Virus record (IMG/VR): IMGVR_UViG_3300021133_000001
Location: 1 to 64,000 of that record
DNA from: a virus
Lineage: Duplodnaviria > Caudoviricetes
Direction: 5' to 3' (one strand)
DNA: 64,000 nucleotides
Below the pieces are notes generated by a model. That model was not told the origin of the DNA and searched no databases. It saw only the letters and a program-made list of their open reading frames with translations. Positions within the stretch are counted from its first letter, which is position 1; each line of letters begins with the position of its first letter. Below are positions 1 through 9,410 of the stretch, piece after piece. The position numbers and the translations under genes were made by a program.

Positions 1-82
1 TTTTAACCTCTCCAATATAACCTTCTTCTATTTCTTTAACTAAATCTACTTTTTTATTAACTAAATCTATTTTTATTATCAT
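1..82 (-). CDS. Partial small protein, C-free coding strand (MIIKIDLVNKKVDLVKEIEEGYIGEVK...), runs off the window edge
   Basis: Translated by hand; ATG at 82 preceded by AAAGGAG Shine-Dalgarno; no stop before position 1. Confidence 0.7.
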   Translation of the reverse strand, partial: MIIKIDLVNKKVDLVKEIEEGYIGEVK

Positions 83-103
83 AATATTACTCCTTTATTA
101 TTT

Positions 104-271
104 TTAATCTAAATAACTACCTAATAATTCATCTACATCTTCTTTATTATCTAAACTCCATAATTTATCTAACCCATTTAACCCAAAATCTTCTTCATAA
201 TTCTCTAATATTTCTTTACTATAACTACTCTCTACATAATCTCTTACATTAAATACTTCTTTATTTTTCAT
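104..271 (-). CDS. 55-aa acidic protein, C-free coding strand (MKNKEVFNVRDYVESSYSKEILENYEEDFGLNGLDKLWSLDNKEDVDELLGSYLD)
   Basis: Translated by hand; own promoter; paralog at 3235-3384. Confidence 0.85.
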   Translation of the reverse strand: MKNKEVFNVRDYVESSYSKEILENYEEDFGLNGLDKLWSLDNKEDVDELLGSYLD

Positions 272-277
272 AATATT

Positions 278-306
278 AATATACTAACTTTTTATTATTT
301 AATCAA
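278..306 (-). promoter_or_regulatory. sigma70-like promoter TTGATT-N17-TATATT, 6 nt before ATG (leaderless)
   Basis: Read directly; near-identical copy at 475-503. Confidence 0.75.
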
Positions 307-324
307 CACTAAAATTAAATTATT

Positions 325-468
325 TTAACCTTTTAACTCTATAAAAATACCATCTTTATTAACACCTATAATATTAAACTCATAATTAAAATCATAAATC
401 TTAATATTTTTTCTACCTTTTTTCTCAACTTCTTCTAATAATTCTATTAATTCTCTAATTTTTTGCAT
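325..468 (-). CDS. 47-aa protein with a single C in its coding strand (MQKIRELIELLEEVEKKGRKNIKIYDFNYEFNIIGVNKDGIFIELKG)
   Basis: Translated by hand; promoter directly upstream. Confidence 0.75.
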   Translation of the reverse strand: MQKIRELIELLEEVEKKGRKNIKIYDFNYEFNIIGVNKDGIFIELKG

Positions 469-474
469 ATTATT

Positions 475-503
475 AATATATCTACTTTTATTATTTTAAT
501 CAA
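475..503 (-). promoter_or_regulatory. sigma70-like promoter TTGATT-N17-TATATT, 6 nt before ATG
   Basis: Read directly. Confidence 0.75.
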
Positions 504-511
504 CTATATTA

Positions 512-658
512 TTATAAATCTAATATTAAATCTTTTAAATTATAAATAAAATTCTCATAACTACCTTCATCTTCTACACTCATTTCACCTTTCTCCATTT
601 TATCTTTTAACTCAAATAATAACTCTTCTATTAATTTTATTTTATCTTTATTATTCAT
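512..658 (-). CDS. 48-aa acidic helical protein, C-free (MNNKDKIKLIEELLFELKDKMEKGEMSVEDEGSYENFIYNLKDLILDL)
   Basis: Translated by hand; fills the gap between promoter units. Confidence 0.75.
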   Translation of the reverse strand: MNNKDKIKLIEELLFELKDKMEKGEMSVEDEGSYENFIYNLKDLILDL

Positions 659-840
659 TTTATTTTTATATTTTATTATTATATTATTAAATAATAATAT
701 TATTATATTTTTATAATATATTTTTTTTATTAATATTTTTATAAGAGTTTTAATAATATTTTTTATTTAATTTATAATATTAATATATATATTTTATTAT
801 AAAGTACAAGTTAAAAATAATATTATTTTAATCCTTTTTA
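657..840. other. Extremely A/T-rich tract (657-744 contains only A and T)
   Basis: Base composition read directly. Confidence 0.9.
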
Positions 841-844
841 GCTT

Positions 845-1010
845 GCCTATTAATAAGGGAGCCGTTAACCTAAGCGTATAAACACACGAGGACCCGAGCA
901 ACGTAGTGTTGAACACGTACCCGGGTCCTGTGATGATAAAACCGGCGGTTGAAAAATAAAGAAAGACCGCGCGGGAAATTGGTAGCCGATTTATTAAGCG
1001 ATCGGCTAAA
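845..1010. ncRNA. Candidate structured RNA or cis element with several hairpins
   Basis: Inverted repeats AGGACCCG/CGGGTCCT, GTGTT/AACAC, GCGGT/ACCGC, TAGCCGAT/ATCGGCTA in a GC-rich island. Confidence 0.4.
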
Positions 1011-1021
1011 CGCTATACTAG

Positions 1022-1291
1022 TTAGGCTTTAGTATTACGACGGCCTTCACGGCTGACGTAGTTCTTTTGTAGAGCCTCTAATGATCCGTGCTTTGCAATA
1101 ACCTTGTCAATGTAGCTAGCGGATGTGTACTTTACTGACTTACCGGTAACCTTACAAGTAAGGACTAATGGTAATGTATAGCCACGGGTAGCAGCTTTCT
1201 CATCACGCTTTGTAGCGATAGTAGCTGAACGCTTAGCCTTTGCTTCGGCTGTTTGTGTTGCACTGATGTTTGTATTAGTATCTGTATTCAT
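1022..1291 (-). CDS. Small basic hypothetical protein, paralog of 61639-61908
   Basis: Shared RGxxLPLxLxCxVT..KYTSxxYIxKxIAKHGSxE..KNYVSxEG. Confidence 0.85.
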   Translation of the reverse strand: MNTDTNTNISATQTAEAKAKRSATIATKRDEKAATRGYTLPLVLTCKVTGKSVKYTSASYIDKVIAKHGSLEALQKNYVSREGRRNTKA

Positions 1292-1397
1292 TTTATTATT
1301 TTAGTTTTAGTTTTTTTTAGGTTTAAGTTTTATTAACTTATAAGATCTATTATGGATTAAGTTCCGATTTATGCAAGCTTTTTTTCCGATTATTTTA

Positions 1398-1610
1398 TCA
1401 AACACCGGGTGTTTGAATCTTAACGGGGGTTTGAATACCCGTAGGAATCACTTCTGCCTTTAGCTCTGCTTCGTTGATTAACTGCTTCATAAAGGTCTTA
1501 AATGCCTCCGGATTGGTTACCTTGAACCCAGGAGTGTTAACGAAGTTTGGTATTGATACCATCGTGCCCTCTAATAGGCCTGATAGTCTTGCGTAGTTAA
1601 TCATTTTCAT
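1398..1610 (-). CDS. Hypothetical protein
   Basis: ORF with promoter TTGCCT-N17-CATTAT upstream. Confidence 0.7.
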   Translation of the reverse strand: MKMINYARLSGLLEGTMVSIPNFVNTPGFKVTNPEAFKTFMKQLINEAELKAEVIPTGIQTPVKIQTPGV

Positions 1611-1647
1611 ATTAGTATAATGGATTAAGTTCCGTTAAAAGGCAAGC

Positions 1648-1836
1648 TTAAATCTTCTGGATTCTAAACAAGCAACCTAATGAGTTAAACTCCTTTTCAA
1701 GCTTATTCATAAGCTTTGTAGCTTGCTCCTTTGTTAACTCTTTCACTTGCTTAGGAGTAATATCACTTGTAGTGTTTAAGTTAAACGCATTCCAGTTATT
1801 GGAATCATGTGTTTTAATTTGTATTGTATAATTCAT
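1648..1836 (-). CDS. Hypothetical protein
   Basis: ORF with promoter TTGCAC-N17-CATTAT upstream. Confidence 0.7.
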   Translation of the reverse strand: MNYTIQIKTHDSNNWNAFNLNTTSDITPKQVKELTKEQATKLMNKLEKEFNSLGCLFRIQKI

Positions 1837-1875
1837 TGTTTAAATATAATGGTAACTTTATTAACAAAGTGCAAT

Positions 1876-1909
1876 AAAAAAGGGATATACCGTTAAGATA
1901 TATCCCTTT
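1876..1909 (-). terminator. Intrinsic terminator
   Basis: AAAGGGATATA/TATATCCCTTT stem plus U-tract after the 1916 stop. Confidence 0.75.
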
Positions 1910-1915
1910 GAAATG

Positions 1916-2209
1916 TTAATCAACCTGAACAATACTGAAGTTAGCTACGAAATAAGAATCAGCAAAGATTGCATTATTTCTATCACTCTCTCCTAAATCC
2001 AACTCAGTGTAGAAGTACTCATCACTATCTTTATCTAAAGCTTGTTTAATCTCATTTGGACCCCAAAGAGCTAACTTACCACAAGCTTTGATGATATTAG
2101 ATCTACTCCACGAAGGTATTTGTACCTCACATGTATTAGAACCAGCTAATGAAGCGTGTTCCCCTACTAATGAATCATCTCTATACACATATTGAATATG
2201 AATTTTCAT
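1916..2209 (-). CDS. Hypothetical protein
   Basis: ORF; promoter TTGACT-N17-CATAAT near 2256-2284. Confidence 0.75.
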   Translation of the reverse strand: MKIHIQYVYRDDSLVGEHASLAGSNTCEVQIPSWSRSNIIKACGKLALWGPNEIKQALDKDSDEYFYTELDLGESDRNNAIFADSYFVANFSIVQVD

Positions 2210-2530
2210 AGAACATTATAATAATGAAACGTGATTGTTTCTTTATTATCTATACATTATGGGTACTTTATTGAATAAAGTCAATTCAAAAAAATCCCTT
2301 TTTGAAGCTTTTTAGCTTGACTTCAACAGGAACTTAAACTACAATATTATTATAAGGGGGGGTTATGGACATAGCTAGAAGGAGATATATAATCCTTTGA
2401 TCAATCCAACAGTAGTGATATCTCCCTTGAATGATATAGATTTTGAAATATAACCCGATAAAACTGGATATAATGGGAGCAAACTTTAAGCTTGCACTTA
2501 AGTTTAATGTACGCTATACTATATAGTTAA

Positions 2531-2689
2531 ATGAGAGACTCTACTTATATAAACTTTTTGGCAAGGCTAAAAACCCGGTTCACACCCTTTATTGGCAAGG
2601 TTTGGGTATACGCCGAGGTAACAGCGACATTACTCTACACCGTATTGATCGGGTACGTTGTGTACCTAGCCTATAAAGCACCGAGATGA
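2531..2689 (+). CDS. 52-aa single-pass membrane protein (MRDSTYINFLARLKTRFTPFIGKVWVYAEVTATLLYTVLIGYVVYLAYKAPR)
   Basis: Translated by hand; promoter TTGCAC-N17-TATACT at 2492-2520; hydrophobic C-terminal half. Confidence 0.6.
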   Translation: MRDSTYINFLARLKTRFTPFIGKVWVYAEVTATLLYTVLIGYVVYLAYKAPR

Positions 2690-2875
2690 TCTATAAGGTC
2701 TATAGAACCTATATCACTCTAGGTAGACACGGTGCTATTACACGTAGAGAGAGCAGACGCACCCAGTACTCCAGTACACGGCCCTTGCTAATAAACCTGG
2801 TCACGCTGAGTCGACTAGGTCTAATAGGCCGACTGGGGTGTTTGGAATGACGGGGTTACTATAGATAACTAGGGA

Positions 2876-2899
2876 TTTGAATCCCCCCGGGGGTTTGAA
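2876..2899 (+). repeat. TTTGAA-N12-TTTGAA direct-repeat pair; also at 1412-1435 and inverted at 3196-3219
   Basis: Three copies with identical 18-bp period and G/C-run flanks. Confidence 0.7.
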
Positions 2900-2990
2900 T
2901 CTGCACGTACTGGGATTTTTGCGCAAAAAAAATTGCGAAAAAAATTGGATTGGGACTAAGTGTAATACGGATTTATTTACCAGCTACTAC

Positions 2991-3161
2991 TTATTTTATA
3001 TCCGTCTTCTTCTTATCCTCTTTCAGGCGTGCTAGTAGCTCGTCCGTACGTTTATGTTCCTCCTCTAGGTACTTGACGATGTCCTTTACTTGCCATCTTC
3101 TACCGCGAAAGTCGCAGTAATGTTCTTGTGGTAGTTTCTTATAGTCTTCTAAGGTTACCAT
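2991..3161 (-). CDS. Hypothetical protein (start revised to MVTLEDY)
   Basis: TAAGTA late-type motif just upstream of ATG 3161. Confidence 0.65.
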   Translation of the reverse strand: MVTLEDYKKLPQEHYCDFRGRRWQVKDIVKYLEEEHKRTDELLARLKEDKKKTDIK

Positions 3162-3234
3162 ATAGTAGTACTTACTTACACCCGACTGCTGGGTGTTCAA
3201 ATCCCCACGGGGGTTCAAATCCCTGCATGGGGAG

Positions 3235-3384
3235 TTAGTACTTGGCTAATACATCATCTACTTCATCTTGTGTTAAGCTATATAGATATAATGTAGATTC
3301 TATACCGTATTCTTCTACGAACATATCTACTATCTCTTCACCGTAGTTATCTAGTATATATTGTTTACAGTTAAAGGTACTCAT
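3235..3384 (-). CDS. 49-aa acidic protein (MSTFNCKQYILDNYGEEIVDMFVEEYGIESTLYLYSLTQDEVDDVLAKY), normal-composition paralog of 104-271
   Basis: Translated by hand; aligns over its full length with 104-271. Confidence 0.8.
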   Translation of the reverse strand: MSTFNCKQYILDNYGEEIVDMFVEEYGIESTLYLYSLTQDEVDDVLAKY

Positions 3385-3387
3385 ATA

Positions 3388-3660
3388 TTAATCGTTATAC
3401 TGTTCTTGTACCTTCTTTAGATCGTTTAGTAGGTTTGCTTTTTCTTCACCTTCTATTACTCTTTCCAATCTTTGAGAACCCCCTACATATAGTCTATCCT
3501 TCCATACCTCTTTCCAGCTTTCTCCTCCGGCAAATATCCTACCCTCCTCTCCATTAAACTCTACTATCTTTCTTACTGGTATTACTCCATTATCCTCAAA
3601 GTAAAACCCGTCGCATATAAACTTACCCTTTAGTATTAACCAATCGTTTCTGATTTCCAT
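3388..3660 (-). CDS. Hypothetical protein
   Basis: ORF track; purine-rich coding strand. Confidence 0.7.
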   Translation of the reverse strand: MEIRNDWLILKGKFICDGFYFEDNGVIPVRKIVEFNGEEGRIFAGGESWKEVWKDRLYVGGSQRLERVIEGEEKANLLNDLKKVQEQYND

Positions 3661-3759
3661 ATTATATTCCCTTTTCTAGTTTAGTGTTTAGTATTTGTAT
3701 TGAATTTTTATATGTCATACAGTGATTATACTACGTACCTTATCGGTTTAGTGCAAGCT

Positions 3760-3993
3760 TTATTCTACCCCGTCGTTGCCTATCGCTTCTACTGGACAAC
3801 CTTGTAATGCTTCTTCACACTCTTCTACCTCTTTATCGGTAGTAGGTTGTTTATACACAATAGAATATCCACCGTCATCTCTTTTAAAGTTTAACGGTGC
3901 TACCTCTCTACATAAGTCGCAATCAATGCACTGCTGATCTACATAGTACTTGCCTGCAATGTTACCAGGCCATTTATCAGTTAGTATAGCCAT
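3760..3993 (-). CDS. Single-cluster ferredoxin (3Fe-4S/4Fe-4S)
   Basis: YVDxxCIDCDLC...CPVEAIG motif. Confidence 0.92.
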   Translation of the reverse strand: MAILTDKWPGNIAGKYYVDQQCIDCDLCREVAPLNFKRDDGGYSIVYKQPTTDKEVEECEEALQGCPVEAIGNDGVE

Positions 3994-3999
3994 TATATA

Positions 4000-5010
4000 T
4001 TAACCGAACACATCGGTTGGGTCTACATTAGCTTGTTCCATGCCCTTGAATACAGAGTTCCATAACTCCTCTTTTACATCTTCTGGCATTGGTTGGGTAG
4101 GGTTGTATTGTTTCCATTCTGCTTCTAGCTCTAACCAATAAGCTCTTATCACTTCTAAAATACTATCATGACTTCTATCAGTCATATCCAGTTTAGCTCT
4201 TATACCTGCTGCTACTCTATCCTCACTATTATTAGATCTATCATCCCAGGGTTCCATTATCTCTCTTACTTGCTTGGTACCACCTAATGGCTTACCGTTA
4301 CATAGACCATCTGGAGTGACCTCTACTACTGAATAGGCCGAACGTTTTTTCCTTACCATGACTGCTGTCTTTGTTTGCTGGTCTTGTGGTATTTGACCGG
4401 TTTTGATCCAATCGTGTCCGGTCCTTATCCATTGACTAAATTCGTAGCCTATATCAAATAGACGATTGATAGACTGTTTCTGTTCTGGTGGGATAGTTGG
4501 AGGTGGTGCATCTCTTGTACCATAAGGATCAGTGTCCTCATTCTGATGATACTGAGTGTACCTATCTGGGTCTGCACTAACCATATCAAGAGCAAAGGCC
4601 TTAGCTGCTTGTAACAGTTTAGGGTCTGTAGCTACATTACCATTAATGTCCATTACCTGTAACCATTCTGTATCTACTGCACGGTCCCCATTCCATACAA
4701 ACTTGGCCTGCACCTCATAAGGCGTACCATTATATTCAAAGTCGTTGTCGTTCATGAACTCTACATCTCTAGGACTTGTTTCTTTTACCTCTTGATTAGG
4801 TTCTGATTTAGGCTCCGGTATACCAGCTGCCTTATGTGCTGCAGCACTGGTGCGCCAGTCCTGCCTCTTACCCCACTTAGTCAAGGACTTATAAGCCGTT
4901 GTACCATCTGCATGTGTGTAAGGCGTTACCTTGGGGGTACCTGGTTGACGACCTTCTTCTTTTACCTCTTGTTCGTACTTCTCGGCTAAGATCTTATATT
5001 GATTGCGCAT
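4000..5010 (-). CDS. Late multi-domain hypothetical protein, possible internal virion protein
   Basis: TATAAATA upstream of ATG 5010; N-terminal ILAEKY motif. Confidence 0.7.
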   Translation of the reverse strand: MRNQYKILAEKYEQEVKEEGRQPGTPKVTPYTHADGTTAYKSLTKWGKRQDWRTSAAAHKAAGIPEPKSEPNQEVKETSPRDVEFMNDNDFEYNGTPYEVQAKFVWNGDRAVDTEWLQVMDINGNVATDPKLLQAAKAFALDMVSADPDRYTQYHQNEDTDPYGTRDAPPPTIPPEQKQSINRLFDIGYEFSQWIRTGHDWIKTGQIPQDQQTKTAVMVRKKRSAYSVVEVTPDGLCNGKPLGGTKQVREIMEPWDDRSNNSEDRVAAGIRAKLDMTDRSHDSILEVIRAYWLELEAEWKQYNPTQPMPEDVKEELWNSVFKGMEQANVDPTDVFG

Positions 5011-5033
5011 AGATATATTTATAAAAACATCCA

Positions 5034-5070
5034 CCCTAATAGGAACCCTAATACGATACCTAATAGGAAT
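5034..5070. repeat. Three ~12-bp tandem repeats CCTAATA(G/C)GA
   Basis: Read directly. Confidence 0.7.
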
Positions 5071-5104
5071 ATTTTGATTGCTTGGTTAACGAATTTGTTC
5101 TTTG

Positions 5105-5332
5105 TCATGATATCCAATTAAAGGCATCTTCTAATTCTAAATTTTTGACTTCTTTAAATTTGGTTTCTGTGTTCAGGTATTTGATTAAAATCTTTCCATC
5201 TTCTAAGAACTCTACCGAACGGGCAATTGATTTACCGTTCGTTCTTGTGTACTTAATATCATCGGATGTCTTATAGCCTTGAAACTTAAGCATCCATTTT
5301 ATATCTCTTAGTTGTTGTTCCCGGGTATTCAT
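5105..5332 (-). CDS. Hypothetical protein
   Basis: ORF track. Confidence 0.65.
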   Translation of the reverse strand: MNTREQQLRDIKWMLKFQGYKTSDDIKYTRTNGKSIARSVEFLEDGKILIKYLNTETKFKEVKNLELEDAFNWIS

Positions 5333-5424
5333 TAGTATTATTAGTATGTCTAGTACTCTCGCCTGTGCAACTCTTATTTACCTTTATATTATACTTGGAT
5401 ATAATAAAGGTAATACGGATTTAA

Positions 5425-5622
5425 TTAGTGTTTTATATTAGGTATTATCTTGTTCCAAACACGTTCGTGTACATAATACAACGCTATCTTACCTAAGAAC
5501 TCTAGAACGGATATGCCTAGCGATATCTTAAAGCTTTTTGTCATTAGCCAACTTATCAGGAACGTAGATATACTACCGAGCAAACGATAGGTAATGGCTT
5601 TATAAAGAGCTATAAGTTTCAT
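5425..5622 (-). CDS. DUF2061-like small membrane protein
   Basis: KAITYR..GS.ST...E..K..LYYVHERVW pattern. Confidence 0.8.
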   Translation of the reverse strand: MKLIALYKAITYRLLGSISTFLISWLMTKSFKISLGISVLEFLGKIALYYVHERVWNKIIPNIKH

Positions 5623-5711
5623 TTCTTTTTCTTTTTCTTTAATCTCTTACGCGTTAGTACTGCCATATAATACTCTTCATCTACTTGTACTTTTATTTCT
5701 TTTCGTCTCAT
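5619..5711 (-). CDS. 30-aa basic peptide (MRRKEIKVQVDEEYYMAVLTRKRLKKKKKK)
   Basis: Translated by hand; ATGA overlaps with both neighbours. Confidence 0.55.
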   Translation of the reverse strand: MRRKEIKVQVDEEYYMAVLTRKRLKKKKKK

Positions 5712-5896
5712 TTTACGTACTCCATCCAAGCATCCATTCTTTGTCGCCACTCTTTATATTGAGCTACTGCTTCTCTACTTTCATCGGTTATATGTTCGTA
5801 CGAGGCTTCTAAAGCCTCTACAGCTTTAACGACATTACCTTTTGTATAGTTTTCGGCAAAGTATTGGATATATTTAAATGCTTCTAATAATGTCAT
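5708..5896 (-). CDS. Hypothetical protein
   Basis: ORF track. Confidence 0.65.
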   Translation of the reverse strand: MTLLEAFKYIQYFAENYTKGNVVKAVEALEASYEHITDESREAVAQYKEWRQRMDAWMEYVK

Positions 5897-5922
5897 AATA
5901 ATATTATATGATTAATTAAATG

Positions 5923-6234
5923 TTATGCTACTAATTGTGCATATTTTTTTCTAGCTTGTTCGTGAGTCTCGCCGGATAGTCTAACGTAAGTGCCGTGATT
6001 CTCATTACCACCTTCTTTATCTATATCAATGGTAATGTGGTAAGGGCAATAACCCTGACATTCACTATTTGTTAATAGGTCCCAGGTATGATCTGAAAAG
6101 TAATCATAACTAAAGTGCCAAGGCAGTTTTACGTTGTTCTCTTTACACTTTAGGTAACATTCATAATGGTCATCCATTAAGTAGTAACCGCGTAGTTGTG
6201 TATAGATAAGGGAAGAAAGGGTAGTTTTATTCAT
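5923..6234 (-). CDS. Hypothetical protein
   Basis: ORF; promoter TTGACT-N17-TACTAT suggests start at 6234. Confidence 0.65.
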   Translation of the reverse strand: MNKTTLSSLIYTQLRGYYLMDDHYECYLKCKENNVKLPWHFSYDYFSDHTWDLLTNSECQGYCPYHITIDIDKEGGNENHGTYVRLSGETHEQARKKYAQLVA

Positions 6235-6275
6235 AGAGTACAATAGTAGTACCTCTATGTTATTAAGTCAAGCTT

Positions 6276-6695
6276 TTATTCGTGACAGTTCCACTTACGT
6301 AATGCTAGAGCCTTACGAGTTGGTTTACCGTTTGGCTTCTTCATTGGACCCTTTACACCAGACATTCTAGCACAGAAACTCTTGCGACGTTTAGCTGCTT
6401 TACTACCAGCTTTTAATTTGCTCGGTTTAGTAGTAACAGCCATTGATAAATGAGAGCCTGGATGCTGTCTACGATAGCTATTGATACCTTTCTGGTTTAA
6501 ACCACCAGAAGGTGACTTACCGGCTTTCTTCTGCCAGGTAGGTGCATGCCCCTCTTTTGGTACACAATTAGGAACAGTCTTACCGTTCTTCTTTTTAGTA
6601 CCCACTGGATGATAGCCTGTCCAGCAAGGATTGTCTTTAGGATCTTTTAGTCCTTCTAGTATTAAATTGACAGCAGCATCAAACTTATTAAACAT
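6276..6695 (-). CDS. Basic phage protein, DUF6321-like
   Basis: CWxGY...VPNCVP and GGLNxKG...RRKSFCARMxG...RKWNC motifs; TAAGTA upstream. Confidence 0.75.
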   Translation of the reverse strand: MFNKFDAAVNLILEGLKDPKDNPCWTGYHPVGTKKKNGKTVPNCVPKEGHAPTWQKKAGKSPSGGLNQKGINSYRRQHPGSHLSMAVTTKPSKLKAGSKAAKRRKSFCARMSGVKGPMKKPNGKPTRKALALRKWNCHE

Positions 6696-6699
6696 ACTA

Positions 6700-7011
6700 T
6701 TACTTATAAATCTGATACATCTCTTTCATCTCTCTTATCCACTTATTGGATTGTAGAAGTGCCTGACTCTCACTCTTACATAACTTGCCATACTTCTTAA
6801 AGAACTCTCTAGTAGTCTTATATGTATAGCACTTACCATTGCCTTGCCATAATAGTAATGTACCTTTATAATCTTCTTCATCTGCTTCAAGATATAGTGG
6901 TTCGTACTCTTTAATAGCAGATATACGACCCTCCATTAGATCGTCATCATTAAGCCAGGTCCTTACATCTACAAAACCTTCATCTATTAAATACTGCAAA
7001 TAGTCTTTCAT
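6700..7011 (-). CDS. Hypothetical protein
   Basis: ORF track. Confidence 0.7.
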   Translation of the reverse strand: MKDYLQYLIDEGFVDVRTWLNDDDLMEGRISAIKEYEPLYLEADEEDYKGTLLLWQGNGKCYTYKTTREFFKKYGKLCKSESQALLQSNKWIREMKEMYQIYK

Positions 7012-7181
7012 TGTAACTTAATTAATTTAAATGAACCATCTTTTTGTTCTTCCCAAAGCATTCTATCTCCTTCTTTAATATCAAGACGTTCAAGCATTTC
7101 ACGAGGAAACTCTATGTACAGATCATCAGTTGTTTTATCTGTTTGTACCTCAACAAGCCAACTGACTTTAAGTTTCTTCAT
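7008..7181 (-). CDS. AbrB/MazE/SpoVT-like DNA-binding protein (57 aa)
   Basis: Translated by hand: ...DLYIEFPREMLERLDIKEGDRMLWEEQKDGSFKLIK; ATGA overlaps on both sides. Confidence 0.75.
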   Translation of the reverse strand: MKKLKVSWLVEVQTDKTTDDLYIEFPREMLERLDIKEGDRMLWEEQKDGSFKLIKLQ

Positions 7182-7381
7182 AACTTAATATTATTTATTA
7201 ATTTTATTTCCTTTTTAGCTTCTACTTGCTTCTCTGTAATAAATTTTATTGTAGTGCCTTCTCTCTTGAGACCATCTAGTACTACCTCTACCCACTCATC
7301 ACCGTACTTGCCTTTAAGATAAGCATTACCATATAGGTTGTTAAACTGTTCTTTGGTTACTTCGATTATTTTTTGTCTCAT
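7178..7381 (-). CDS. Hypothetical protein
   Basis: ORF track; coupled overlaps. Confidence 0.65.
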   Translation of the reverse strand: MRQKIIEVTKEQFNNLYGNAYLKGKYGDEWVEVVLDGLKREGTTIKFITEKQVEAKKEIKLINNIKL

Positions 7382-7692
7382 TTAAATTCCTTTCTATCAT
7401 CCATTTCTGGTTTGTTCTTTTCTGTCCACATCATACACATTATGTTCCATACAGCAGCTGCAGCATGGTCTTCGTTATTCTCTCCCTGCCAATACTTCAT
7501 TAAATGTCTCTGTGCACTATCATAATAGACAGAAGTGTTCATACCTTTCTTCCAATTGTTAAAGCCATACTTCTGACCACCTGATACAAAGTGACTAGCC
7601 ACTCTCATTAACTCTTCATGAGGTACTAAGCTTAGTCTTGGTTTACCAACATCTGTATCTCTTTGTGCGCCTGTATCAAATTGTCTTTTCAT
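7378..7692 (-). CDS. dATP/dGTP diphosphohydrolase-domain (DUF5664-like) protein
   Basis: GAQRD.D.GKPR..L.P...GxxKYGxxNWxKG...YDSAxRHL...EDH.AA..WN. Confidence 0.85.
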   Translation of the reverse strand: MKRQFDTGAQRDTDVGKPRLSLVPHEELMRVASHFVSGGQKYGFNNWKKGMNTSVYYDSAQRHLMKYWQGENNEDHAAAAVWNIMCMMWTEKNKPEMDDRKEFK

Positions 7693-7763
7693 TGTGTATT
7701 ATTATGTAATTATTTGTTATTAAATCAAGCTTTATTTAAGACGGGGTATAAATATTTTTAACA

Positions 7764-8639
7764 CTACTTAACCCAATTGCTTAACGCTCTATCTAACGCT
7801 TCGTGTACCTCTGTTAATTTGATACCTGTATTAAGTATCTTATTATTATCAAGCACGCAATTGCTACGAGGTGTCTTAGCAGCTACTTTCATAAACTCTG
7901 ACTCATCTTTAAAGAACTTGAACTCTTTATCAGATACTTTATTCTTTTTAATAAGCTCTACTACTTCTTGAGTTGTTACTTTACCTGGGTTAGTAACGTT
8001 GTATATACCATAAGGTATCTTATTAAGATAGCTATCTAAACAAGCATTAACAAATTCATTTAAGTCTGATAAACTATTAGTAGCATCTAATAGAGTATTA
8101 TAGTTCATTAACTTACTAAGGTAGTTTCTCTTATTGTTAACATTATCAAATGGAATGCGTAAGCGCCAAATATAAACATTATCATAATCAGCTAGCACCT
8201 CCTCTCCTAAACCTTTTGTACCACTATACCAGGAACAACCACCCTTACTTCTAAAAGTGAAGTTAGGTTTATCTTCTTCAGTCCATCCATTAGAACGCCA
8301 CACATACCCGCTACCTGTATATATACATCCAGAAGATACATGCCCCCAAGGTATATCTAGCGTTTGACAGGCACGCGCTATAATGCCTGGTAGTACGGCA
8401 TTACCTAACAAGCACTCATCTTTATCTACCTCACAAGCATCAACGTTTGGCTTGCCGGTATAACCAGCACAATTAATTAAAAATTCTGGCTTATCAGTAC
8501 ACATCTGGTTGAAGAGTTTGTTAGGTGAATAGTAGTCAAGTTCTTTTCGACTAATACTCTTATAAGGTATACCTCTAGCCTTTAGCTGAGATTGAAACAC
8601 ACTTCCAACATAGCCTGTACCGCCTAGTAAATAAATCAT
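7764..8639 (-). CDS. RmlD-like NDP-sugar reductase/epimerase
   Basis: GGTGYVG, INCAGYTGKPNVDACE, SSGCIY, YSGTK (YxxxK). Confidence 0.9.
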   Translation of the reverse strand: MIYLLGGTGYVGSVFQSQLKARGIPYKSISRKELDYYSPNKLFNQMCTDKPEFLINCAGYTGKPNVDACEVDKDECLLGNAVLPGIIARACQTLDIPWGHVSSGCIYTGSGYVWRSNGWTEEDKPNFTFRSKGGCSWYSGTKGLGEEVLADYDNVYIWRLRIPFDNVNNKRNYLSKLMNYNTLLDATNSLSDLNEFVNACLDSYLNKIPYGIYNVTNPGKVTTQEVVELIKKNKVSDKEFKFFKDESEFMKVAAKTPRSNCVLDNNKILNTGIKLTEVHEALDRALSNWVK

Positions 8640-8681
8640 AATAAATATTATATCTTATTAATGCTTAAATTCAAGAAATTA

Positions 8682-9410
8682 TTAAGAATAATAATAGTCC
8701 CAGTCGTGATTATGAAATAAAGTTTCAGGTATAATAGGATCCCATTTTCCTTTTACAAGAGCTTCTTTTATGTGCTGTGCTACTAATACGTTTATTTCTT
8801 CTGTAAGATGGCAGTAAACATTTTCCTCTGCATTACATTTTATATAACCATCTTTTTTAAATGTTTCTAAATAATCCGGTTTCAAACTCCTTACAGCAAG
8901 TTCTTGATAATTTCTAAACATTGCACCACCTTGATTTAATGCAGGAAGCACAGAAATTAATATACAATCAGGTCGTATTTCTTTTATTTCCTTTAACATT
9001 AATCTGCATATATCTTTATACACAATATCACTATAAATATGAGTATAATAATATTCAAGAGCTTGTAGTTTAAGTAAAGCTTCATCTGATAACCATTGCT
9101 TATTAACATTTTTAAATTGCTCTACTGTAGTGGTAGAATTCATACCATACAGCAAACCATTGTACTCTATCATATTATTAAGACAACGGCCATGATCTGT
9201 TGCAACAAAGACGACTTTATCAAACTTAGAATGCGTATCTAAAAATTTACGATAACTATAATGCACATCACTGCCTGGTAAGCCATAATTAGTTACGTTA
9301 AAATCTTTTTTTAAATGATATGACCATTCTTTTTCAGATAATAACCTTTCTTTACCATCGTGCTTCCAATCCTTAGCAAAGGAATCTCCGTATATGCCTA
9401 ATGTTTCCAT
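8682..9410 (-). CDS. SGNH-like hydrolase/acyltransferase
   Basis: YGDSF, NYGLPGS, C-terminal His. Confidence 0.7.
   Translation of the reverse strand: METLGIYGDSFAKDWKHDGKERLLSEKEWSYHLKKDFNVTNYGLPGSDVHYSYRKFLDTHSKFDKVVFVATDHGRCLNNMIEYNGLLYGMNSTTTVEQFKNVNKQWLSDEALLKLQALEYYYTHIYSDIVYKDICRLMLKEIKEIRPDCILISVLPALNQGGAMFRNYQELAVRSLKPDYLETFKKDGYIKCNAEENVYCHLTEEINVLVAQHIKEALVKGKWDPIIPETLFHNHDWDYYYS

Follow-up and report, generated by a model that had tools for sequence, protein, structure and literature searches.

Genes and features at the left end of the window

The window, a stretch of 64,000 nucleotides of viral DNA, starts at base 1 of a 140,180-bp viral contig with a CheckV completeness of 44%. 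Base counts agree with the preliminary description of its left end: the + strand holds a single G in positions 1-744, at position 465, further G residues follow at 745, 747, 804 and 810, and an ordinary G frequency is found from 841 onwards. Given the G frequency of 0.170 in the contig, the probability of one G or fewer in 744 nt is 1.3e-58, and no other G-free or C-free run of at least 100 nt was found within the 140,180-bp contig. The + strand is also without C at positions 657-806. The four - strand ORFs reported earlier were recovered as described (2-82, which the contig end cuts, 104-271, 325-468 and 512-658). Within the window their serine codons are AGT only (7/7) and their arginine codons AGA only (3/3), as had been claimed, and AGG occurs twice elsewhere in the island to which these genes belong. 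The lone C was seen where it had been placed, in the CAA codon for Gln2 of ORF 325-468 (window G465), and this cytosine is invariant across every strain contig compared. The acidity claimed for two of the three complete products was borne out (pI 4.17 and 4.39), and the third has a pI of 6.2. The features are as follows, C-free referring to the sense strand.

1..82, - strand: gene A, C-free, 5' part with 27 of 48 codons; the full gene lies at L004:3490-3636
95-90, - strand: putative Shine-Dalgarno AAGGAG of gene A, replacing a promoter cassette of its own; the sole such island gene here
104..271, - strand: gene B, C-free, 55 aa, pI 4.2; C-free homologue at L041:1330-1491
272..306, - strand: predicted gene B promoter cassette (TTGATT at 306-301, 17 nt, TATATT at 283-278, 6 nt, ATG)
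325..468, - strand: gene C, C-free bar one, 47 aa; CAA (Gln2) holds the only sense-strand C of the arm
469..503, - strand: predicted gene C promoter cassette (TTGATT at 503-498, 17 nt, TATATT at 480-475, 6 nt, ATG)
512..658, - strand: gene D, C-free, 48 aa, pI 4.4; first gene of the arm
659..806, no strand: A/T-only arm head, without G or C except for sense C at 745 and 747
744-739 and 720-715: candidate promoter 1 in the arm head (TTATAA, 18 nt, TATATT)
809-804 and 787-782: candidate promoter 2 in the arm head (TTGTAC, 16 nt, TATATT)
841..1021, no strand: island boundary, where normal G+C content returns
3235..3387, - strand: gene B paralogue of normal composition, 31% identity over 48 aa, E 1e-8
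7008-7181: MazE-like domain protein
7378..7692, - strand: protein of 104 aa with a PF18909 dATP/dGTP diphosphohydrolase N-terminal domain (1e-25) and a predicted early-type promoter

A near-identical TTGATT-N17-TATATT-N6-ATG cassette is found ahead of 10 of the 13 island genes and reads as a sigma-70-type promoter that would give a leaderless message; for gene B, the spacing of the cassette predicts such a message. Nearby early genes of normal composition have the same promoter type, many with the ATG 6-8 nt past the -10 element. Promoters, leaderless starts and the "early" class are sequence-based predictions throughout. Taken together, an association of the C-free composition with intact small genes behind putative sigma-70-type promoters is supported.

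An island of two convergent gene arrays

An exact protein lookup in public assemblies returned 14 ENA/JGI lake-metagenome contigs reaching beyond the left end of the window. Independent contigs extend the block by about 2.9 kb to a conserved island of 3.7 kb, of which window 1-744 is the left arm, cut short by the contig end; the phage is T4-like, uncultured and from freshwater. The contig L004 (9,692 bp), which is 99.8% identical to window 1-3571, contains the whole island. Two convergent arrays of five and eight small genes are separated there by a G+C-containing bidirectional terminator. The five genes of the first array lie on one strand (48, 47, 55, 48 and 83 aa; L004 sense 2828-3941, with one C), and the eight of the second on the opposite strand (58, 101, 104, 59, 81, 80, 73 and 73 aa; L004:4095-6501, with no C on the sense strand), so that the sense strand of the arrays has one C in about 3.5 kb. 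The encoded 13 proteins (47-104 aa, 910 residues) contain no Ala, Pro, Thr or His and a single Gln, and are thus built from 15 amino acids; 12 of the 13 are acidic.

The island centre, 150 bp of normal G+C content with many C and G, contains a promoter-like TTGCCA-N17-TATAAT, three copies of TTTGAACAC and the bidirectional terminator hairpin GAAGCCTCCCC TAAA GGGAGGCTTC, which is the only terminator-like hairpin of the island. It also holds the palindromes AAGCTT, AGTACT and ACGCGT. The arms begin with A/T-only heads of about 90-150 nt, and the head at window 659..806 resembles that of the other arm (L004:6397-6599; about 81% identity, inverted orientation). In the arrays themselves, neither CG nor GATC nor any 6-mer palindrome containing G or C was found, as expected by the preliminary description of a G-less duplex, except that one GC does occur. 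No tRNA was detected by ARAGORN in L004 and L003, and nothing in them scored above the Rfam gathering score.

Two further IMG/VR contigs, G002 from the same phage and G001 (76 kb) from a strain 86-96% identical, also end inside the island, and the repeated cassettes and inverted heads are probably the cause of these contig breaks. In L011 and L012, genes of both arms are joined in a new order; these are short contigs, in which a repeat-driven assembly chimera is possible.

For the block as a whole, an assembly chimera or library artefact was rejected and keeps next to no probability: the block does lie at a contig end beside a low-complexity A/T stretch, but independent assemblies cross the junction identically (window 622-922, 100% identical in contigs that come from two assembly pipelines and six or more samples), the reading frames are unbroken and conserved, and the property is common to relatives from other lakes. 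The question raised earlier of a chimera or deamination artefact at this boundary is thereby answered with neither. Of the words sampled from window 1-2000, a fraction of 0.66 or more was present in each of 17 DNA runs from 2016-2023. The RNA runs X18-X21 contained 6-12% of the sampled words and were given no weight either way.

The source is a distant T4-type myophage from freshwater. Its tail sheath matches gp18 of T4-like phages, and G001 encodes gp46/47-like, clamp-loader-like and NrdAB-like ORFs (translations read by eye only), whereas the Pfam match for a DnaG-type primase is marginal, at or just under the curated cut-offs. No match among cultured phages was returned by blastn with window 1-6000 or by tblastn with two island proteins. 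Protein-pattern scans of IMG/VR with gene B and the 336-aa neighbour as queries found no relatives, PHROGs gave nothing significant for nine local proteins, and PF00303 (thymidylate synthase / dCMP hydroxymethylase) was not found in three contigs.

Selection against C on the sense strand

In both arrays, genes and spacers alike, purifying selection holds the sense strand free of C. In orthologous alignments of 11 contigs, C is among the sense-strand variants at 90 of 180 variable sites in the flanks and at 0 of 118 in the island (Fisher p 1.5e-25). The property is not genome-wide: the remaining ORFs of at least 60 aa in G000 and G001 have at least 7.9% sense C, with a mean of 16%, and a median skew of about 0.1.

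The same skew, which the preliminary description had proposed to look for in related phages, is indeed present there. Eight related islands, including L023 and spanning 41-70% protein identity, comprise 13,034 nt, about 44 genes and 3,591 aa without a single C, even though their G content reaches 32-35%. The five amino acids that depend on C are missing from homologues of the 104-aa protein at 68-70% identity, and every relative recovered by a metagenome scan at 41-53% identity, from other lakes, lies within a C-free block. The putative expression signals of these islands differ, with an extended -10 TGATATAAT, AAGGAG and 20-nt leaders. Gene content varies among relatives, and the translations of related islands, read by eye, include homologues of gene B and of the 58-, 59-, 101- and 104-aa genes.

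The ORFs are not only conserved at 41-70% identity but also evolve under constraint, with an omega (nonsynonymous versus synonymous rate, under a mutation model forbidding C) of about 0.30. An 88-aa family member has a predicted fold with a pLDDT of 91, for which Foldseek against PDB and BFVD found no match at E <= 0.001. Both the omega value and the confidently predicted fold indicate that the island genes are real.

Among 14 small cluster representatives of this family, 10 lack A, P, T, H and Q and two have one such residue each; the other two clearly contain C, at 13% in P0016 with its ordinary alphabet and at a low 6.8% in P0014, and both lie amid genes of ordinary composition. The family is found with normal composition in L051 and L054. 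Since such members and the normal-composition paralogue of gene B exist, the C-free composition is not a requirement of the proteins.

Two simple causes were rejected. Plain A+T richness does not account for the pattern, as relatives reach 33% G yet have no C. Sparing of tRNAs fails as well, given that the spacers are also constrained and that Lys, Asn, Asp and Tyr are abundant.

Level at which the constraint acts

An ORF cannot do without the A, U and G of its AUG and stop codons, and C is therefore the only letter that it can lose. It follows from the genetic code that only the sense strand could be the C-free one, so that orientation alone shows no RNA-level cause and does not separate RNA-level from DNA-level causes. 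The extent of the exclusion is more informative along the transcript. Spacers and cassettes, over which transcription would continue, are included in it, and C returns 3-51 nt past the last stop codon of an array. The centre keeps many C and G. Where the same cassette stands before genes with normal or low C content, in L023 and L042, those genes lie at the 3' end of an array and nowhere else. The return of C after the last stop and the C-containing genes at the 3' ends fit a cost imposed in the 5' to 3' direction of transcription and speak against local avoidance of restriction sites.

The near all-or-none pattern, reached at the expense of five amino acids, suggests a considerable cost for each C in place of a gentle bias. 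Nevertheless, C is not an absolute and unconditional block: the promoter type recurs in front of adjacent early genes with normal composition, the very same cassette can stand before C-containing genes, and a conserved C lies at +4 of a predicted leaderless message. In one relative, C is found within a predicted 5' leader.

A proposed cost of C in the message, and rival explanations

The reading we favour, though about evenly balanced between right and wrong, places the constraint at the nascent message, where C would be costly, or at the use of CTP. Each C of the RNA, that is, each step requiring CTP, would be penalised under some recurrent condition, such that early messages for host takeover or counter-defence could still be finished when ordinary C-containing messages fail. 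As the agent, chain-terminating CTP analogues (viperin-type ddhCTP) or a CTP shortage would rank first; a dead-end elongation complex would block the whole array and impose a strong cost per C, while a rare C in the first few nucleotides might lead to abortive cycling only. Blindness to Rho would rank second, Rho loading needing C-rich RNA; Rho prefers RNA with C over G that is pyrimidine-rich (PMC13323073). Elsewhere, however, avoidance of Rho has produced a modest bias and not a complete loss of C. A C-directed RNase or RNA-modifying enzyme would rank third.

Modified guanine in the template, an explanation offered before, has local genes on its side. The phage would carry G replaced by or modified to a 7-deazaguanine derivative, or host enzymes would damage G, and a G-free template would spare host RNA polymerase from stalling at the first genes of the injected DNA. 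QueC (2e-62) and an adjacent GATase are encoded on G001, a contig abutting the island, QueD (PF01242) lies 1.2 kb from the island in the relative L023, and the PF18909 dATP/dGTP diphosphohydrolase-like gene (window 7378-7692) is 7 kb away; a QueE-like protein on G001 has a weak radical-SAM match only. In the Campylobacter phage CP220 and the Cellulophaga phage phiST, G is reported to be completely replaced (PMC10516641), yet neither has a C-free run of at least 156 nt on either strand, and nor do the QueC-bearing phages KVP40, pf16 and Ep032. Moreover, the neighbouring early genes, including the PF18909 gene itself, have about 20% template G under the same promoter type, and no TGT/DpdA-type (PF01702) match was found in the 241 kb of G000, G001 and G002, a search that covers an incomplete genome and a divergent DpdA family. 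The closest QueC homologues are those of KVP40-like phages, in which the level of DNA modification is very low. Thus the G-free template gains the local QueC, QueD and PF18909 genes and loses generality, CP220 and phiST lacking such a block, and we regard it as unlikely.

Removal of the targets of a deaminase is about as unlikely. A cytosine deaminase would attack the non-template strand of very strongly transcribed early DNA, or the RNA, and selection would have purged every C. The depletion is strand-specific and matches the transcription units, no polymorphism involves C, and the only retained C is at a site where C-to-T makes a stop codon, all of which would be expected. However, both strands still have many C in the terminator and promoters between the arms, C-containing genes lie under the same promoter cassette, and the state is all or nearly none, rather than graded across the early genes. 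To our knowledge, no such cytosine deaminase has been reported for these hosts.

Messages free of structure are a less probable purpose than either of these. Without C there would be no G-C pairing, which could favour efficient initiation without leaders or with a weak RBS, and many genes here appear leaderless. Folding predictions give -0.08 kcal/mol per nt for the arrays and -0.19 for the flanks, a gap that comes partly from the lower G+C content (0.20 versus 0.37-0.39). Relatives nevertheless keep zero C despite a strong AAGGAG and 20-nt leaders, and a graded benefit is not expected to purge every C and five amino acids.

At the DNA level, a first-injected segment without G/C palindromes might be invisible to restriction, as had been suggested, and the arrays do lack CG, GATC and G/C-containing 6-mer palindromes, with one GC. 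This is very improbable. At least seven assemblies have the island in their interior, and a genome terminus or first-injected end is not supported, as the sequence continues past the window start in independent contigs; the leftward check asked for by the preliminary description thus found no terminus. AAGCTT, AGTACT and ACGCGT lie in the centre on which the arms converge, and the rest of the genome has ordinary sites, so that local avoidance would be useless unless this segment entered first and alone. A T5- or T7-like leading end would be free of palindromes throughout, unlike this centre. It would also be the physical leading end of the virion DNA; the island lies inside the contigs L004-L009.

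Comparison with known systems

The nearest counterparts of the island are the PeSL (promoter-early stem-loop) cassettes, which occupy hyperplastic regions of T4-type phages (PMC2839356). Both belong to T4-type phages and consist of arrays of small ORFs of unknown function with a repeated, putatively strong sigma-70-like promoter before each, and the island may share with them a cassette-mediated shuffling of genes between strains and relatives. On the other hand, PeSL cassettes include a stem-loop terminator, whereas none was seen in the cassettes here, which cannot form G-C stems because they have no C; nor are PeSL-flanked genes described as missing a nucleotide.

A purine bias that avoids Rho is known as a genome-wide and modest trend (54% purine) in species with runaway transcription; it acts on nascent RNA and follows transcription, not replication (PMC13323073). 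The arrays resemble it in the direction of the bias, towards purines and G over C on the sense strand, with a purine fraction of 0.64-0.65 and a C fraction of 0, compared with a purine fraction of 0.51-0.56 in the flanks, but the island shows a local and absolute exclusion of C that costs five amino acids.

Other sequences lack a letter or a motif by design or by selection. Synthetic G-less or C-less cassettes are transcribed without the matching NTP, the polymerase halting at the first occurrence of the missing letter. They are artificial, non-coding and a few hundred bases long, whereas the island is natural, protein-coding, 3.7 kb long and under selection. In ACA-less, MazF-resistant mRNAs and in the avoidance of restriction sites or PAMs, a nuclease target is purged at the price of coding freedom. 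There, a specific motif of 3-6 nt is removed, while the island has lost every C in any context. Full-text searches of the literature found no description of cytosine-free phage genes, in line with the earlier statement that no described phage gene cassette of such a build was known, and as far as these searches show, the C-free gene island is an undescribed phenomenon.

Implications

Genes written in three nucleotide letters and 15 amino-acid letters, kept so across kilobases and in diverged phages, imply an agent that penalises C. It would target every cytosine of the message or every guanine of the template. The island provides a ready test set, with at least 13 genes and counterparts of normal composition. 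The 88-aa model (predicted, pLDDT 91) suggests that stable folds are possible without Ala, Pro, Thr, His and Gln, and such genes may be of use for the design of reduced-alphabet proteins and of unstructured or CTP-independent RNA.

Returning to a cost of C in the message, a wider and more tentative reading, which we think rather doubtful, is that C-free islands could be a general "hardening" device of large phages, their messages needing no CTP. The messages of a reserve of counter-defence or takeover genes would then still be finished while host immunity depletes CTP, poisons it (viperin-type ddhCTP) or targets the C of RNA, and this would be the only possible device of its kind, because C is the sole letter that ORFs can lose. 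Whichever agent is responsible, its identification would uncover a further layer of bacterial immunity or else a host-takeover tactic not seen before.

Putative genes for 7-deazaguanine synthesis

Candidate genes of 7-deazaguanine metabolism were located as follows:
L018:3542-4919 and L017:18550-19356 (G001, contig of an 86-96% identical strain), QueC, a neighbouring glutamine amidotransferase and a weak QueE-like protein
window 7378-7692, dATP/dGTP diphosphohydrolase-like protein
L023:2577-3008, QueD, in a relative
This phage group is likely to synthesize a 7-deazaguanine base. A search of 241 kb of contigs for a DpdA-type gene found none.

Organization and variation of the C-free island

In two short JGI contigs (L011 and L012), genes of the two convergent arms were joined in a single orientation after gene A, which could reflect genuine shuffling of genes between the arms, mediated by the cassettes, or else chimeric assembly via the repeated cassette. 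Gene B (window 104-271) showed 10 nonsynonymous and no synonymous codon differences among strains, in contrast to an omega of ~0.3 across the full island, and may be under diversifying selection. An island-related protein was modelled from a relative:
L041:3063-3326, 88-aa protein, family of alignment A2
It uses 15 amino acids, and its predicted structure is a confident alpha/beta fold (pLDDT 91, pTM 0.82), for which no match was found in PDB or BFVD.

The arms converge on a centre just past the left end of the window:
L004:3942-4094 (independent contig spanning the island), island centre
Immediately 3′ of the last stop codon lies a promoter-like TTGCCA-N17-TATAAT. Downstream of it come TTTGAACAC, present three times, and a bidirectional terminator hairpin; the inverted repeat AAAAAGCTTGCC / GGCAAGCTCTTTTT encloses all of these elements. 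This centre, which hit no Rfam family at gathering score, may represent a small RNA or an array of binding sites for a regulator.

Repeated tRNA T-arm-like motifs (GGGATTTGAACCCCC, GGGGATTCAAATCCC) were found in:
window 2210-2990 (L003:7030-8070 in another contig), ~0.8-1 kb whose ORFs are all short and questionable as coding sequences
ARAGORN found no tRNA gene in this stretch. A C-free form of the motif, GTTTGAATTTTAGTG, lies upstream of most island cassettes.

Early genes outside the C-free island

Many early genes of normal composition (window 1400-8700, minus strand) carry AAGCTTGAYT-N17-(C)ATAAT promoters, with only 6-8 nt between the -10 element and the ATG and without a Shine-Dalgarno site, so this phage may make frequent use of leaderless messages. 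Also neighboured by early genes is:
window 7008-7181, minus strand, 57-aa protein, MazE/AbrB-type antitoxin domain (E 5e-6)
This protein may serve the phage as a decoy antitoxin, countering a MazF-type toxin of the host.
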